A stretch of DNA of 49,362 bases from contig JAWCLA010000001.1 of the NCBI GenBank assembly GCA_039091855.1, positions 13,267 to 62,628 on the forward strand, written 5' to 3'. The first letter of the stretch is position 1; each line of letters starts with the position of its first letter. This document shows, piece by piece, positions 4,651-37,906 of the stretch. Origin of the DNA: Candidatus Aenigmatarchaeota archaeon (lineage in GTDB: Archaea > Aenigmatarchaeota > Aenigmatarchaeia > QMZP01). The notes beneath the pieces are model-generated. The model was not told where the DNA came from and ran no database searches. It saw only the letters and a program-made list of their open reading frames with translations. Position numbers and translations under genes: made by a program.

Positions 4651-6147
4651 ATGCGAAAGGGATTTATGCGTATAGTCGAGATAGTGATAGTAACGATGCT
4701 TGCCTTTGCTGTTCTGGTGCAGTTTTACCAGATTCCTAAGCAAGAAACAGAATGGGAAAAACTAAAGCTTTCTTTACAGGCAAATGACATTATTTTGTCC
4801 CTTGATAAAAAGGGTGTTGACTGGTTCAATTACACAGAGGTAGACAAGGTTATAATTAACAGCATTTCAGGTAATATGTTTTACAACCTGAAAATAGATA
4901 ACGTAATAAAAAACGAGATAAATGTGGGGTGCATATGCAGTGTTGCTGAAACTGCAGGTTTAAGCAATGCTCTTAAATATTTTGATTTAAACAGGCAGGA
5001 AACCGAATTCAGAGTAAGCCAAATTTCACCTGACTCTATATCATTTTCCCACGAATATGATGTCATAGTGGTTTTCGACTACAATCTTACAGAAAATTAC
5101 ACTCAGATAAGGCATTTTCTAGATGCAGGCAAGGGAATTGTGGAATTCAGGCATTTTGACATATCAGAAATTGATTCTGTACAAAGTGATTTCTTCGGGT
5201 TGGAATGGAATTCCTCTTTAAATCCAAATTCTAATCCTGTAGAATTTGTGTCAAATGAAAGTTACGAGACTTACTACAATATTTACAAATACTTTCATCA
5301 CATACCTATTTTTCAGGACAATTTCAGCAGCAGCTCTGGAGAGTGGTCTGTGCAAACAGGTACGTGGAATTTACAAAACGGAAATTATGTCGGGACAGGC
5401 ACGCCTGCAATAGTGACAACAAATGCACAGTTCCAGAATTATTCATTAAGGGCTATGTTTTCCTCGCAGACCGCCAGAAACATAATGCTTATAGTTTACT
5501 GGCAGGACATAAGCAATTATGGAGCCGTTGGTATTGATATGGATTCTGACACTGTAACTGTTTTTGAAAACATATCAGGAAATCCTATAAACAGGGGCTC
5601 TGCGCCTTCTCCCATCCCTTTAAATTATAACAACTGGTATAGTATGAAAATAATCTCAGAGGGAAACAATGTTGATATCTATATAAATAATTCTTATGTT
5701 ATATCTGCTACACTCTCAAATATTCCACAAAGAATTGGCCTTGGTGTTGAAAATGGACAGGCTTCCTTTGACAATGTGAGGGTAACATTTTCGGAAAATC
5801 ATATATTTTCGAACATTTTGCAAAATGAAAAGGTAGGGCCAAATCCAAATGCCAAGCATTCGAAAACCGTTCTTGTCCAGCAAGGTACAAATACACCTTC
5901 CTGTATAATTAATACAAACATTGTAAATGGAAGGGGAAGAACGGCATGGCTGGCTTCTGGTTCAGGAATCAATCAGGAAACAGGAAATATGCTAAAATCT
6001 CTTGTTTCGTGGGCTGCAGGAGAGGAGAGGTATATTGTTAAAAATGAAGTGAGAAATGCCGTTGTTGCAAAGGTTTACAAGGTATATGACGAAGACATAT
6101 ACCAACCTGTTGAGATTACTCTTTCCATAGGAAGCCTTTACTCCTGA
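4651..6147 (+). CDS. pilin-like protein with bacterial-style KGF prepilin N-terminus and a probable ConA/LamG-like beta-sandwich domain
   Basis: ATG at 4651 gives MRKGFMRIVEIVIVTMLAFAVLV (KG|F, Glu at +6, hydrophobic helix). The C-terminal half has WSVQTGTWNLQNGNYVG ... YSMKIISEGNNVDIYINN ... ASFDNVRVTF, reminiscent of DUF1080/LamG lectin folds. The fold assignment is tentative. Confidence 0.55.
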   Translation: MRKGFMRIVEIVIVTMLAFAVLVQFYQIPKQETEWEKLKLSLQANDIILSLDKKGVDWFNYTEVDKVIINSISGNMFYNLKIDNVIKNEINVGCICSVAETAGLSNALKYFDLNRQETEFRVSQISPDSISFSHEYDVIVVFDYNLTENYTQIRHFLDAGKGIVEFRHFDISEIDSVQSDFFGLEWNSSLNPNSNPVEFVSNESYETYYNIYKYFHHIPIFQDNFSSSSGEWSVQTGTWNLQNGNYVGTGTPAIVTTNAQFQNYSLRAMFSSQTARNIMLIVYWQDISNYGAVGIDMDSDTVTVFENISGNPINRGSAPSPIPLNYNNWYSMKIISEGNNVDIYINNSYVISATLSNIPQRIGLGVENGQASFDNVRVTFSENHIFSNILQNEKVGPNPNAKHSKTVLVQQGTNTPSCIINTNIVNGRGRTAWLASGSGINQETGNMLKSLVSWAAGEERYIVKNEVRNAVVAKVYKVYDEDIYQPVEITLSIGSLYS

Positions 6148-7556
6148 TCCATTCTCCATCTAGGACCCTGTGGCGTGTCCTCAATAACAATTCCTTTTTT
6201 GCGAAGCTCTTCCCTTATGGCATCTGCCTCCTTCCATTTCTTTTGTTTTCTGAGATTTTCCCTTTTCTCAAGAAGTTCCCTTGTTTCTTTGTCAGCATCA
6301 TCTAATGAGTGCCATTTCTTTTTAACATTCTTAATATCGAGCCCAAGTATACTGTCTATATCAAAAATCGTTTCAAGAATCTGCTTTGCATTTTTATCAG
6401 AAATGCCTTCCTGCACAAGTATATTTGCATTCTTCATAAATTCAAAAAATGCTTTGAGAGCAAGAGGTGTGTTAAGGTCATCATCAAGAGCGTTCTCGAA
6501 GTCTTCTCTGAGTTTTTTGCACAGCTCCTTTGCCTTTGGGTTTTCCTTTCCTGATTTTATTTCCACAATCTCTGCAACAAAATTCTCAATACCCTTTACC
6601 GTTTCCTCAGCGGATTTCATTGCCTCCATCGTAAAGTTTAGCTTTGTTCTGTAATGCGCCGAAAGAAGGAGATATCTTATTGCCTTTGGACTGAATCCCT
6701 TTGAAAGCAAATCCCTCAGTGTGAAAAAATTTCCGAGTGATTTAGCCATCTTCTGACCGTTCACTAAAAGGTGCTCATTATGAAGCCAGAATCTAACGAA
6801 CTGCTTTCCTGTGGCTGCCTCTGACTGCGCTATCTCATTCTCATGATGTGGGAATACAAGGTCAACGCCTCCTGTGTGTATGTCAAATGTTTCCCCAAGG
6901 TATTTCATACTCATTGCAGAGCATTCTATGTGCCAGCCTGGTCTTCCCTTTCCTAACTCGGTTTCCCAGAAAACATTCCCGTCTTCTTCATTCCAGAACT
7001 TCCATAGAGCAAAGTCGCTTGCCGAACTCTTGTCGTACTCGTCCTGCCTGACGCGCGCTCCTGCTTTAAGCCCCTTTAAGCTTGTTCCTGAAAGCTTTCC
7101 GTAATCCTTGAATCTTGATATCTTGTAGTAGATTCCGTCCTTGCCCTTATAAGCATATCCTCTTTCTTCAAGCTTTTTCACAAGGGAAACCATTTCTTTT
7201 ATGTGCTCCGTTGCCCTTGGATATATTGTCGCTGGTTTTATGTTAAGTGATTTTATGTCCTCAAAAAAAGCCTTCTCATACCTTTCCGTAAACTCTTTCA
7301 GGGATATGCCTTCCTTCCTTGAATTCCTTATTGTCTTGTCATCGACATCGGTTATGTTCATAACCTGCTTAACATTAAAACCTTTCCATTCGAGATATCT
7401 CCTTAAAAGGTCCGCAAAAACATAGGAGCGAAAGTTTCCTATGTGGGCAAAATCGTAAACAGTAGGCCCGCAGTTATAGATGCCTACAACTCCCCTTTTC
7501 AAAGGACTGAAAACTTCCTTTTTCTTAGTAAGGGTGTTGTAAAATTTTATTTCCAT
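6138..7556 (-). CDS. cysS: cysteinyl-tRNA synthetase
   Basis: Class I motifs: HIGN (YDFAHIGNFRSY) and the KMSKS variant KMAKSLGN. CGPTVY zinc-site Cys. Typical length of 472 aa. Confidence 0.95.
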   Translation of the reverse strand: MEIKFYNTLTKKKEVFSPLKRGVVGIYNCGPTVYDFAHIGNFRSYVFADLLRRYLEWKGFNVKQVMNITDVDDKTIRNSRKEGISLKEFTERYEKAFFEDIKSLNIKPATIYPRATEHIKEMVSLVKKLEERGYAYKGKDGIYYKISRFKDYGKLSGTSLKGLKAGARVRQDEYDKSSASDFALWKFWNEEDGNVFWETELGKGRPGWHIECSAMSMKYLGETFDIHTGGVDLVFPHHENEIAQSEAATGKQFVRFWLHNEHLLVNGQKMAKSLGNFFTLRDLLSKGFSPKAIRYLLLSAHYRTKLNFTMEAMKSAEETVKGIENFVAEIVEIKSGKENPKAKELCKKLREDFENALDDDLNTPLALKAFFEFMKNANILVQEGISDKNAKQILETIFDIDSILGLDIKNVKKKWHSLDDADKETRELLEKRENLRKQKKWKEADAIREELRKKGIVIEDTPQGPRWRMDQE

Positions 7557-14928: not shown

Positions 14929-15269
14929 GCCTCCGTAGCTCAGTTTGGATAGAGCGCCAGCCTTCTAACAAAGCCTTTTTTTCAAAAAAGGCTTTGGAAC
15001 CCAAAAAATTATCTGAACTATGCGAAAATTTAATATAAAAAGAGTGCAGGTTCCTAGTGTTAGAAGAAATGAGGGAAACAATAAATATGATTTCATAGGT
15101 TTTGGCAATTTCCCGATGATCGGAAGCAAGCTGGAAGTCGCGGGTTCAAACCCTGAGCCTTTCTTCCCGAAAGAAAGGCTAAGGTTCATCCAAAGAAAGG
15201 GAATTAATCGGTTAATTGATTAACTGTTAATATGAAGAGTGAACACAGGAGAAAATCCCGTCGGGGGCA
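14929..15269 (+). tRNA. tRNA-Arg(UCU) with two introns (about 161 nt at 37/38, about 105 nt in the T-loop at 59/60)
   Basis: Exons 14929-14967, 15129-15150 and 15256-15269 give 75 nt. Acceptor GCCTCCG/CGGGGGC, D arm GCTC-AGTTTGGATA-GAGC, anticodon arm CCAGC-CTTCTAA-GCTGG, T arm GCGGG-TTCAAAT-CCCGT. Intron 1 contains GTTAGAAG, complementary to the anticodon-loop junction CTTCTAAC. Confidence 0.8.
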
Positions 15270-20862: not shown

Positions 20863-21055
20863 GGGCCCATAGCTCAGTCTGGTTTGAATTTGAAGCAATA
20901 TATAGCTTCTCTTCCGGAAAGAGCGCTCGGCTCTTATCGCTTTGTTAACGGCGTTCGCCGCTAATGATTGGGTGAGACCGAGAAGTCGAGGGTTCGAAGG
21001 CGCAAGGTTAATGATTGGAAACTGTCTTTTAGTTACGAAAATCCCTCTGGGCCCA
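20863..21055 (+). tRNA. tRNA-Lys(CUU) with three introns (D-loop about 36 nt, 37/38 about 40 nt, T-loop 59/60 about 43 nt)
   Basis: Exons 20863-20883, 20920-20936, 20977-20998 and 21042-21055 give 74 nt. Acceptor GGGCCCA/TGGGCCC, D arm GCTC-AGTCTGGTA-GAGC, anticodon arm CTCGG-CTCTTAA-CCGAG, T arm GAGGG-TTCGAAT-CCCTC. All stems are perfect. Confidence 0.8.
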
Positions 21056-24503: not shown

Positions 24504-24731
24504 GGCAGCTATCTGGCCTTCCCTCCTGGTTCCGGCAAGAAAGCCCAACAATGGTTGGGCATCCAAGCTGTCGGAAGTACAAGCCAGACCGTAGGGGGTC
24601 TTAACTTCCGTGTTCGGATTTCCCCACCCCTTTCTTTTTACGTTTTTTGCTCCACCGCTTTTTGAAGAAGCGGTAAGCTCTCGTAAAAAAGCGGTGTATG
24701 GGAACGGGTGAACACCCCCGCTTTGGCCGCC
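24504..24731 (-). rRNA. 5S rRNA, abnormally long (about 228 nt)
   Basis: Minus strand reads GGCGGCCAAAGCGGGGGTGTTCACCCGTTCCCAT[79 nt]TCCGAACACGGAAGTTAAGACCCCCTACGGTCTGGCTTGTACT...CCGGAACCAGGAGGGAAGGCCAGATAGCTGCC. Helix I is GGCGGC/GCTGCC. TATA-like TTATATAAA lies about 29 nt upstream (24757-24765). A T-run follows the 3' end. Confidence 0.7.
24619..24697 (-). other. about 79-nt insertion (intron or expansion segment) in loop C of the 5S rRNA gene
   Basis: It interrupts the otherwise contiguous conserved CCCAT|TCCGAAC. Internally, CACCGCTTTTT pairs with AAAAAGCGGTG (11 bp). It contains AAAGAAAGGGG, resembling a motif in the tRNA T-loop introns. Boundaries are good to plus or minus 2 nt. Confidence 0.6.
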
Positions 24732-24774
24732 ATTAGTCTAATAATTGAATGTAACATTTATATAAGTTTCTTGC

Positions 24775-36488: not shown

Positions 36489-36893
36489 TTAACCTGTGGT
36501 TATCTCGACATAATCACCTTTGCTCTCAACGCTTATTATGTAATTTCCCTCTGATTTAGGAATGGTTCCAGTGAGGTTTGCTATAGAATCAGAAAAAACG
36601 TCAGAAATCCCGGAGCCAGACCTCATTTTGAAGTTGATAGTCTTGCCTTCTATCTCAATCTCTTCCACACCCTTCGGGATATATACATTCAGTTTCAACT
36701 TGGCAGGCGGGCCCTGGGCATAAACAAGGTCAGCAGCGCTTGTTATCTGCCTTGCAGCGTTTTTGGCATAGGAAACAGAAAGCTCTTCCCCTGCACCCTG
36801 CTGAACAGAGGAAACATAAACCCAAACCGGTATCACAAACGCGATTGCAAGCGCAAAAATCATCATGTACTCAAAAGAAACCTGCGCTTTCAT
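36489..36893 (-). CDS. archaeal type IV pilin-like protein (class III signal peptide)
   Basis: MKAQVSFEYMMIFALAIAFVIPVWVYV: textbook KAQxSxEY class III signal peptide. Confidence 0.7.
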   Translation of the reverse strand: MKAQVSFEYMMIFALAIAFVIPVWVYVSSVQQGAGEELSVSYAKNAARQITSAADLVYAQGPPAKLKLNVYIPKGVEEIEIEGKTINFKMRSGSGISDVFSDSIANLTGTIPKSEGNYIISVESKGDYVEITTG

Positions 36894-37438
36894 AAATAGT
36901 TATTTGTTTTTCTGTATAAAAATGGACTGGCGGATGAGACAACCCATAAGGAGGCTGTCACCCAGGAAACAGTCTCTGGTATGGCTGCACCAACATATCC
37001 CAAAAAGTAAGCAGCAAAGGAAATCATGCTGAATGCAGAAACCAGAGCGAGCCGTGATTTTTTCTCTGCAAAATAAAGAATTGAAGAAAAAAGCAGGGAA
37101 GCAAACATAATTGAAGAAACTGCCGTATGAATGTGTCCGTAAGACTCGTCAAACATCCCCACAAAAACAAGAAAGAAGGAAGTTAAAGCAAGACCATAAG
37201 ATGTTTTCTCTGCCTGATTTTTCAGTGATTTTAGTGAATAAAGAAGCAACATTATTCCTGATAACTCAACCCCTGAATTGAACAATATTGCACCATAGCC
37301 GTTGGAAGGATTTCCCAGGTCGCTCAGGGCGTTGGTCTCCAGCCTGAACCAAGGCGAGAAAATTATAGACAAGCCTGTGAAAAGGAACAAAACTATAATG
37401 GCTAAAGGTCCAAAAACTGACCATTTTTCAATACTCAT
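36890..37438 (-). CDS. polytopic membrane protein (DUF998-like)
   Basis: 182 aa, 6 predicted TM helices, N-terminal ...NALSDLGN motif. 4-nt overlap with the downstream pilin gene. Confidence 0.45.
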   Translation of the reverse strand: MSIEKWSVFGPLAIIVLFLFTGLSIIFSPWFRLETNALSDLGNPSNGYGAILFNSGVELSGIMLLLYSLKSLKNQAEKTSYGLALTSFFLVFVGMFDESYGHIHTAVSSIMFASLLFSSILYFAEKKSRLALVSAFSMISFAAYFLGYVGAAIPETVSWVTASLWVVSSASPFLYRKTNNYL

Positions 37439-37440
37439 AA

Positions 37441-37676
37441 TGGGGTCGCTGGGATTCCCATTTTATGCACAATAAGCCGTATTATCAGCCTCTTGCGTAA
37501 ATCCCTTTCTTTGGGATAATCCCTACACCTTTCTTTCGGGAAAGAAAGGGGTTGGGCTTTGAACCCAGATGAGCCGGTTTCGCCTCTTCACTGCTTTGCA
37601 AGCAAAGCTCATATTTCCAAACGCAAGCGCTAAGCGCTGTCTGGAGCCGGCCAGGTTGCCGTTGCCTCACGACCCC
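37441..37676 (-). tRNA. tRNA-Trp(CCA) with two introns (about 62 nt at 37/38, about 103 nt in the T-loop at 59/60)
   Basis: Exons 37676-37641, 37578-37558 and 37454-37441 give 71 nt. Acceptor GGGGTCG/CGACCCC, anticodon arm GCCGG-CTCCAGA-CCGGC, T arm CTGGG-TTCAAAT-CCCAG, D arm AGGC-AACGGCA-ACCT with one mismatch. Confidence 0.75.
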
Positions 37677-37679
37677 TAA

Positions 37680-37906
37680 AGCCCCGGGCGCGGCTTTCAA
37701 ATAAAGAGGCTTTATTTATCCGTTATTAGCCGCCAATCTTTATTGAACGCGCGACCTCCCCATTACCAGCGGGGTGCTCTCTATCGGCTCCTTTTCTGCA
37801 GGCGGTTTCTCCCTGAAGGCCGTCGTTTTGAAGGGGTTTTGCTCTACGGCCTTTTGGATGAAGCCAGCAGGCTCGAAAAGGCCGTAACCGACTGAGCTAC
37901 CGAGGC
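37680..37906 (-). tRNA. tRNA-Thr(GGU) with two introns (about 106 nt in the D-loop, about 48 nt in the T-loop near 59/60)
   Basis: Exons 37906-37887, 37780-37742 and 37693-37680 give 73 nt. Acceptor GCCTCGG/CCGGGGC, D arm GCTC-AGTCGGTA-GAGC, anticodon arm CCCCG-CTGGTAA-TGGGG, T arm GCGCG-TTCAATC-CGCGC. Only 3 nt separate it from tRNA-Trp. Confidence 0.75.

Follow-up and report, generated by a model that had tools for sequence, protein, structure and literature searches.

The literature on Thermoproteales (Sugahara 2008 and Fujishima 2010, as summarized in PMC4033280 and PMC4090602) describes multi-intron tRNA genes with noncanonical bulge-helix-bulge (BHB) introns, up to three per gene, and the presence of similar introns in different tRNAs led there to a transposition hypothesis (PMC4033280, PMC4090602). 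In ARMAN-2 (Ca. Micrarchaeum), 56% of the tRNA genes are disrupted, two introns occur in one T-loop, and the tRNA splicing endonuclease EndA is of the epsilon2 type (PMC3239211, PMC3488258); its pre-tRNA-Cys and pre-tRNA-Pro carry introns at position 59/60, together with a broad-specificity EndA (PMC3239211), and 59/60 is therefore an already documented insertion site. Raised tRNA disruption in DPANN archaea, along with an L3-loop EndA, was accompanied by a warning of incomplete tRNA gene sets (PMC5829648), and the heterogeneity of tRNA-Thr(GGU) in Caldiarchaeum was attributed to tRNA gene disruption by integrating mobile elements, with a 1.8-kb insertion (PMC3293823). Here, we analyzed a stretch of 49,362 nt (the window; contig JAWCLA010000001.1 of assembly GCA_039091855.1), in which a tRNA-Thr(GGU) gene and a tRNA-Trp(CCA) gene follow each other on the minus strand at positions 37441 to 37906. 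With a probability of about 0.85, we consider both to be genuine, functional Aenigmarchaeota tRNA genes, each split by two BHB introns.

As judged from the flanking isopentenyl phosphate kinase (IPK), whose best named relatives are Candidatus Aenigmarchaeota, the host is an archaeon of this DPANN phylum. The window was compared with six related lineages (L002, L004, L007, L008, L009, and L010), represented by contigs with IPK homologues of 71 to 78% identity, on which the gene order is kept. The anatomy of the gene pair is as follows.

37680..37906, minus strand: tRNA-Thr(GGU) gene (stem scan; ARAGORN after splicing; orthologues in the six relatives)
37906-37887, 37780-37742, and 37693-37680, minus strand: Thr exons, the final base being the discriminator U
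37886-37781, minus strand: Thr D-loop intron, position 20/21, 106 nt (BHB test and hand reading; homologue in L008)
37741-37694, minus strand: Thr T-loop intron, position 59/60, 48 nt (BHB test; homologue in L004)
37677..37679, minus strand: spacer UUA, 3 nt, between the Thr discriminator (37680) and Trp G1 (37676) (sequence reading)
37441..37676, minus strand: tRNA-Trp(CCA) gene (stem scan; ARAGORN after splicing; orthologue alignment)
37676-37641, 37578-37558, and 37454-37441, minus strand: Trp exons, the final base being the discriminator A
37640-37579, minus strand: Trp anticodon-loop intron, position 37/38, 62 nt (BHB test, orthologue alignment)
37557-37455, minus strand: Trp T-loop intron, position 59/60, 103 nt (BHB test, orthologue alignment)

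In the unspliced window, neither ARAGORN nor Rfam at the gathering threshold found a tRNA or other RNA gene, and a permissive Rfam scan of 37441-37906 returned noise only. A custom stem scan combined with in silico splicing was therefore needed. The script required a T-stem followed by UUCRA, the complement further downstream, and a 7-bp acceptor stem with U8; it gave 26 raw matches, four of which, with GC-rich stems, held up on inspection, i.e., the Thr and Trp genes and two plus-strand matches at 14929-15268 and 20863-21054. Once spliced in silico, these sequences were called by ARAGORN as tRNA-Thr(ggt), tRNA-Trp(cca), tRNA-Arg(tct), and tRNA-Lys(ctt), all canonical cloverleaves. The two other genes, each identified by stem scan, BHB test, and ARAGORN after splicing, are organized as follows.

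14929..15269, plus strand: tRNA-Arg(UCU) gene
14968-15128, plus strand: Arg 37/38 intron, 161 nt
15151-15255, plus strand: Arg 59/60 T-loop intron, 105 nt
20863..21055, plus strand: tRNA-Lys(CUU) gene, with three introns
20885-20919, plus strand: Lys D-loop intron, 35 nt
20937-20976, plus strand: Lys 37/38 intron, 40 nt
20999-21041, plus strand: Lys 59/60 intron, 43 nt

Altogether, the four genes contain nine introns, every one with a BHB core, and 4/4 carry an intron at T-loop position 59/60. An earlier note on this DNA, made from the letters alone, had proposed the same four identities, the same total of introns, the same intron lengths and positions in the Thr and Trp genes, a T-loop intron in every gene, and a 3-nt distance between Thr and Trp; the stem scan, the BHB test, and ARAGORN on the spliced sequences bear it out on all of these.

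The BHB rule applied here requires a central helix (H) formed by two 4-nt strands, one of which ends 2 nt before the 5' cut and the other 2 nt before the 3' cut. This helix is complete (4/4) in the T-loop introns of Thr, Trp, and Lys, in the Arg anticodon-loop (37/38) intron, and in the Lys D-loop intron, and reaches 3/4 in the Arg T-loop intron and in the Trp and Lys 37/38 introns. All four T-loop introns are cut between nucleotides 59 and 60, their outer helix (h) is the 5-bp T-stem, and T-loop nucleotides 54-57 (UUCA or UUCG) pair with the last intron nucleotides (...GAA). Hence, position 59/60, in a 7-nt loop closed by the 5-bp T-stem, corresponds geometrically to 37/38 in the anticodon loop. 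The Thr T-loop intron, with H UUCA/UGAA and an inner helix (h') of 2 bp, is the only one to show the fully strict hBHBh' motif (h and h' both at least 2 bp), the other eight being relaxed; its sequence has no significant fold of its own (z-score +0.17). In the Trp T-loop intron, H is UUCA/UGGG, including G-U pairs, and the relaxed BHB of the Trp 37/38 intron has an outer helix of 6 bp.

The boundaries of the Thr D-loop intron are uncertain by about 2 nt and are the least certain of all. Its relaxed BHB, read by hand, has a 4/4 core helix GUCG/CGAU with bulges GU|U and AG|A and no flanking helices, and excision of the 106 nt gives the D-loop AGUCGGUA, i.e., that of the orthologues L002 and L007, which have no D-loop intron. 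The intron has a fold z-score of -2.8 and contains a 10-bp hairpin (GGCCUUUU...AAAAGGCC). We retained a single 106-nt intron because the 4/4 core is conserved in L008 and because this model restores the D-loop of the intron-less orthologues. The register c5=15/c3=122 would remove G18 and G19, the register c5=22/c3=124 would leave a 12-nt D-loop, and a division into two introns (40 nt at 20/21 and 64 nt at 26/27) yields an identical mature RNA but only 2/4 in the BHB helix of the first intron. The intron also carries a decoy of the 3' strand of the D-stem, GUAGAGCA, to be compared with AGAGAGCA at the start of the downstream exon. The decoy of L008 agrees instead with the exon of L008 itself (GAGCG). 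Such a decoy points to a partial exon duplication or gene conversion during the origin of the intron.

An argument for functional genes comes from the relatives, in which the exons keep their pairing while the introns differ in presence, length, and sequence, as seen in both the Trp and the Thr alignments. The Trp T-stem has undergone compensatory changes (CUGGG/CCCAG in some lineages, GCGAG/CUCGC in others), and pair 6-67 of the Thr acceptor stem varies between G-C and A-U from lineage to lineage. Purifying selection thus maintains the exons of genes whose introns turn over rapidly. Across the seven lineages, tRNA-Thr(GGU) has one to three introns, and its 59/60 site is filled in 7/7, by four unrelated sequences: that of the window (48 nt), homologous to the 49-nt intron of L004; that of L002 and L007; that of L008; and that of L009 and L010. 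The D-loop intron is common to the window and L008, at the same site, and both L004 and L009 carry two additional anticodon-arm introns. In tRNA-Trp, the 37/38 intron is present in every relative, and ARAGORN detects the orthologous canonical intron in L002 and L004, whereas the T-loop intron occurs in 2/7 orthologues, the window (103 nt) and L010 (40 nt), with unrelated sequences, the alignment showing none in L002, L004, L007, L008, and L009. The lineage-wide intron proliferation at a preferred site suggested by the earlier note therefore holds for Thr, with its site occupied in every lineage by changing introns, but not for Trp. One tRNA with four unrelated 59/60 introns in seven lineages shows with unusual clarity how introns are gained, lost, and replaced at one position.

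The locus itself is well founded. An independent Logan assembly reproduces it with 99.84% identity over 3173 nt and no difference within the tRNA genes, so that an assembly artifact can be set aside. A sequencing-run search found its DNA in hot-spring metagenomes. The segment 37441-37906 is noncoding and rich in GC compared with the window (about 40% GC), and the gene content of the window (CysRS, aIF2-gamma, Kae1, IMPDH, FtsZ, archaeal mevalonate genes, and pilus genes) is that of an ordinary chromosome.

Several observations nevertheless weigh against functional, spliced genes. Three central helices are incomplete (those of the Trp and Lys anticodon-loop introns and of the Arg T-loop intron), the Thr D-loop, Trp T-loop, and Lys T-loop introns have no h', and an EndA of the strict alpha4 or alpha2 type would not cut such relaxed motifs. 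The Thr D-loop splice sites are ambiguous, with an alternative register (CGGU/GCCG) that gives a 12-nt D-loop. The run search returned DNA metagenome runs only and zero RNA runs, and the metagenome contigs aligned to the locus showed no joints. No EndA or RtcB gene lies within the window, and the tRNA_int_endo domain is absent from the scanned open reading frames (ORFs) of the window. Finally, intron-less copies may exist elsewhere in the genome, the search having covered the window.

Since multi-intron tRNAs, 59/60 introns, and shared introns are known from Thermoproteales and ARMAN-2, the core of our finding is of an established type. The likeness to Thermoproteales extends to up to three BHB introns per gene, to positions in the D- and T-arms, and to similar introns across tRNA species. 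The host here is, however, a DPANN (Aenigmarchaeota) and not a TACK archaeon, the introns are long (up to 161 nt), and one family of them shares a structured module that is common across phyla; moreover, the Thermoproteales have an (alpha-beta)2 enzyme with a Crenarchaea-specific loop, whereas the window holds no EndA gene. ARMAN-2 resembles our case in its DPANN host and in its 59/60 introns with hBH or strict BHB motifs, but it belongs to a different phylum, and here 4/4 genes of the window have a 59/60 intron. With Caldiarchaeum, the locus shares the tRNA species, an intron number that varies between close genomes, partial exon duplication (the decoy), and mobile-element LAGLIDADG ORFs adjoining the locus in L008 and L009; unlike Caldiarchaeum, the window has no recombinase or 1.8-kb insertion, and the elements seen here are hairpins of about 50 nt. 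What is new are the intron turnover data and the hairpin module. In the literature found, the Aenigmarchaeota had not been analyzed for such tRNAs. Multi-intron genes of this kind explain the incomplete tRNA sets that finders give for DPANN genomes, a problem already raised (PMC5829648): in this Aenigmarchaeota window, every tRNA gene is hidden from the finders, and probably the 5S rRNA gene as well.

The T-loop introns of Trp and Arg are identical over two collinear blocks (15 and 13 nt), fold significantly better than shuffled sequences (z-scores of -3.5 and -3.4, respectively), and resemble the Thr T-loop introns of L010 (116 nt) and L009 (121 nt). They have in common a conserved module, placed in the window as follows.

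37504..37549, minus strand: conserved module at the 5' edge of the Trp T-loop intron (pattern scan, covariation, intron alignment)
15158..15200, plus strand: conserved module in the Arg T-loop intron (pattern scan, intron alignment)

The module consists of a covarying lower stem that extends the hairpin, a conserved R-A mismatch, a 9-bp CCUUUCUUU/AAAGAAAGG stem (closed by CCCG in Trp), a short spacer, and a second AAAGAAAGG copy. The stem below the 9-bp helix covaries with a score of 0.238, versus 0.096 for shuffled alignments (0/500 reach the observed value) and 0.07 to 0.12 for slid partners. Similar introns are thus present in different tRNA species, namely, Trp and Arg in the window, Thr in L009 and L010, and a class-II tRNA in L133. 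One family comprises the T-loop introns of Trp and Arg and the Thr 59/60 introns of the two sister lineages, which argues that introns move between tRNA genes at 59/60, as proposed for Thermoproteales.

A search pattern written from four copies (Trp, Arg, L009 Thr, and L010 Thr), for which 0 chance matches are expected in the window, matched at least 119 contigs in the GTDB species collection and 2 contigs in IMG/VR. With just these two IMG/VR matches, a viral origin was not retained. Among the matches listed, about 74 archaeal loci from about 56 assemblies were counted by accession prefix in the GTDB collection, with hosts in Aenigmatarchaeota, Micrarchaeota/Norongarragalinales, Pacearchaeota, Nanoarchaeota, Thermoplasmata, DHVE2, Altiarchaeota, and many unnamed archaea; the bacterial matches may partly be due to chance. 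Again among the matches listed, the module stands at the 5' edge of a T-loop intron, in a full frame of acceptor and T-stem, in 21 archaeal cases involving different tRNAs, and no bacterial-labeled locus has it in this frame. It also occurs within anticodon-loop introns (Cys, Met, Arg, Gly, and Lys) or D-loop introns, in the orientation of the tRNA in all confirmed cases. Outside tRNAs, it is found in antisense 8 to 10 nt upstream of start codons and at other intergenic sites. The module was also compared with miniature inverted-repeat transposable elements and with palindromic elements derived from IS200/IS605. More than one copy is present in several genomes (e.g., five loci from CAZVWU and four from CAYYYJ), and copies beside genes are found in either orientation. 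Neither a common target sequence nor a terminal repeat was identified among the copies, and no empty-site allele was found on the metagenome contigs that hold the locus. The literature searches returned no description of the module, and Rfam has no family for it. Tentatively, and with the odds leaning against it, we propose that a structured and apparently mobile module of about 45 to 50 nt, so far undescribed, gave rise by copying to the T-loop introns of Trp and Arg. Such a module could make the long-standing question of BHB intron movement testable, and, should it be what seeds BHB introns or carries them from one tRNA gene to another, would be a first concrete handle on archaeal tRNA intron spread.

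Even so, the shared 59/60 position could reflect selection for a splice-competent geometry instead of an insertion bias. In its full form, this explanation holds that introns arrive everywhere, without targeted insertion or proliferation, and persist only at places where half a BHB is already supplied by a stem with a 7-nt loop. We regard it as a serious contender, a little short of an even chance. It accounts for the mirroring of 37/38 by 59/60, with the T-stem serving as h and nucleotides 54-57 contributing to H, for the unrelated sequences at the same site, and for the occurrence of the hairpin module in anticodon-loop and D-loop introns and outside tRNAs. It accounts less well for a module that is always at the 5' edge of the intron and in sense orientation in 21/21 confirmed T-loop cases, which suggests a directional process. 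In any case, it addresses why the site is preferred and not what the genes are. When tRNA candidates were roughly counted on the archaeal loci retrieved, 46 lacked a T-loop intron, 15 contained the module, and 42 were other T-loop candidates. Because these loci had been selected through the module, and because false positives occur in the scan, no rate is derived from the numbers.

Further repeats and hairpins were noted. The 37/38 intron of Arg, very long for an archaeal tRNA intron with its 161 nt, opens with an 11-bp pyrimidine/purine hairpin (AAAGCCUUUUU...AAAAAGGCUUU), a style that recurs in the Thr D-loop intron, in the 5S insertion described below, and in the conserved module. On L047 (CAYYYJ010000031.1, minus strand, ~5590-5790), the module occurs twice in a 98-nt tandem unit, along with a 44-nt duplication of the 5' end of a peroxiredoxin-like ORF; the second AAAGAAAAGGAG copy sits, like a Shine-Dalgarno sequence, 5 nt before each ATG. 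The metagenome-assembled genome of Verrucomicrobia bacterium GWC2_42_7 has six contigs matching the pattern (L046, L076, L083, L101, L105, and L118), and the four that were read (L046, L101, L105, and L118) carry a repeat with the architecture of the archaeal module, i.e., a long hairpin GCGAAAACCTTTCTTTT...AAAAGAAAGGTTTTCGC followed by CCAAAGAAAAG, which looks like a miniature inverted-repeat transposable element. A second family of small hairpins, GAAGGCG-N5-7-CGCCTTC, is represented in two T-loop introns (Thr in L002 and Trp in L010) as well as in the intergenic DNA surrounding the tRNA pair (L002, 6190-6660; L004, 6850-7240; L010, 2630-2760), and is another palindromic element common to introns and spacers.

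Regarding transcription, the 3-nt spacer makes a single Thr-Trp transcript plausible. In 6/6 relatives, Thr(GGU) and Trp(CCA) are on opposite strands, with about 75 to 145 nt of AT-rich DNA between them; the head-to-tail pair of the window is therefore derived, by inversion of the Thr gene, and not ancestral. Trp could instead be transcribed separately, from a TATA-like TTTATTT located inside the Thr T-loop intron (37705-37699), 23 to 29 nt upstream of Trp G1, but we find this unlikely. The spacing of this AT-rich heptamer does fit an archaeal TATA box, Trp has its own promoter region in all relatives because Thr points the opposite way there, and the homologous Thr T-loop intron of L004 is without TTTATTT. 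However, no purine run resembling a B recognition element (BRE) precedes the heptamer, which is short enough to be frequent by chance in an intron of 33% GC, and no T-run terminator separates Thr from Trp, so that read-through from Thr is still expected.

We infer transcription as a single unit, actual splicing, and the type of enzyme, and we propose a model that follows established archaeal tRNA processing. Transcription of the pair would start in the AT-rich region upstream of Thr and probably yield a single precursor, and RNase Z and RNase P would cut in and around the 3-nt spacer. EndA would then cut within both 3-nt bulges of every BHB, and an RtcB-type ligase would join the exons and circularize the introns. 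The CCA end, which is not gene encoded, would be added last. Just 2 nt past the Trp discriminator lies the ATG of a DUF998 ORF (36890-37438, minus strand), whose mRNA may be released, nearly leaderless, from the tRNA precursor by the 3'-processing cut of the tRNA. Among the six relatives, the DUF998 gene is called in L008 only, with a LAGLIDADG ORF between DUF998 and Trp; L009 ends shortly after Trp.

That the genes are decaying pseudo-tRNAs with insertions, functional intron-less copies being located elsewhere in the genome, is very improbable: the silence of the standard finders on the raw window, the relaxed state of some BHB motifs, and a Trp gene that looks broken at its 5' end in L009 would fit such decay, but removing every insertion leaves a perfect cloverleaf, compensatory changes preserve the stems from lineage to lineage as the insertions diverge, the same architecture is found in all four tRNA genes within 49 kb, and no intron-less allele of the exons was found in the four metagenomes holding the locus (contigs only). 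In L009 (5671-6586), tRNA-Trp starts at tRNA position 4 (Rfam tRNA match at 6459-6580, model positions 4-67), the first Trp nucleotides, GGG(GTC), lying 785 nt upstream, and the intervening DNA encodes a 250-amino-acid LAGLIDADG_3 protein (34.9 bits). An Rfam E-value scan of 5200-6700 returned the tRNA match alone, with no group I core, and no BHB was seen by hand at the ends of the insertion. A group I intron was not retained; the insertion may be a homing-endonuclease insertion breaking the gene or an unrecognized kind of intron. Moreover, LAGLIDADG ORFs begin about 30 nt past the 3' end of tRNA-Trp in L008 (5677-6300, Pfam match) and in L009 (6614-7084, similar N terminus, by hand), and the window has no such ORF at this place.

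The Trp 37/38 intron has features of its own. In all relatives, conserved blocks GUUUGGAAAnnUGA(G) and (G/A)UGAAAG surround a covarying hairpin. By hand reading, a UUUGGA preceding a D'-like NUGA box is able to pair (6 bp) with U33-A38, so that C34 would face the fifth nucleotide upstream of this D'-like box, as for the known Cm34 target of euryarchaeal tRNA-Trp introns. The (G/A)UGAAAG block is C'-like, so that the conserved elements amount to an internal D'/C'-like pair only. Within this intron, neither a terminal C box (RUGAUGA) nor a D box (CUGA) was found, nor any Rfam match, and a full box C/D RNA was rejected for want of the terminal boxes. As cited in PMC12558985, the euryarchaeal tRNA-Trp 37/38 intron contains a box C/D guide RNA in Haloferax, Pyrococcus, and Halobacterium. 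Our intron lies in the same gene and at the same position, with a putative D'-like guide toward C34, but differs by its lack of terminal C and D boxes, and its membership in this group is unproven.

Finally, a 5S rRNA match lies on the minus strand at 24566-24734, below threshold (26.6 bits versus a gathering score of 38). It contains a 79-nt insertion in loop C (24697-24619), between CCCAU and UCCGAAC, and its helix IV/V region is shortened. Read by hand, the insertion has a BHB-like core, UCCC/GGGA, with AU|A and AA|U as its bulges. A BHB intron is thus probable in the 5S rRNA gene too, an unusual place for one.

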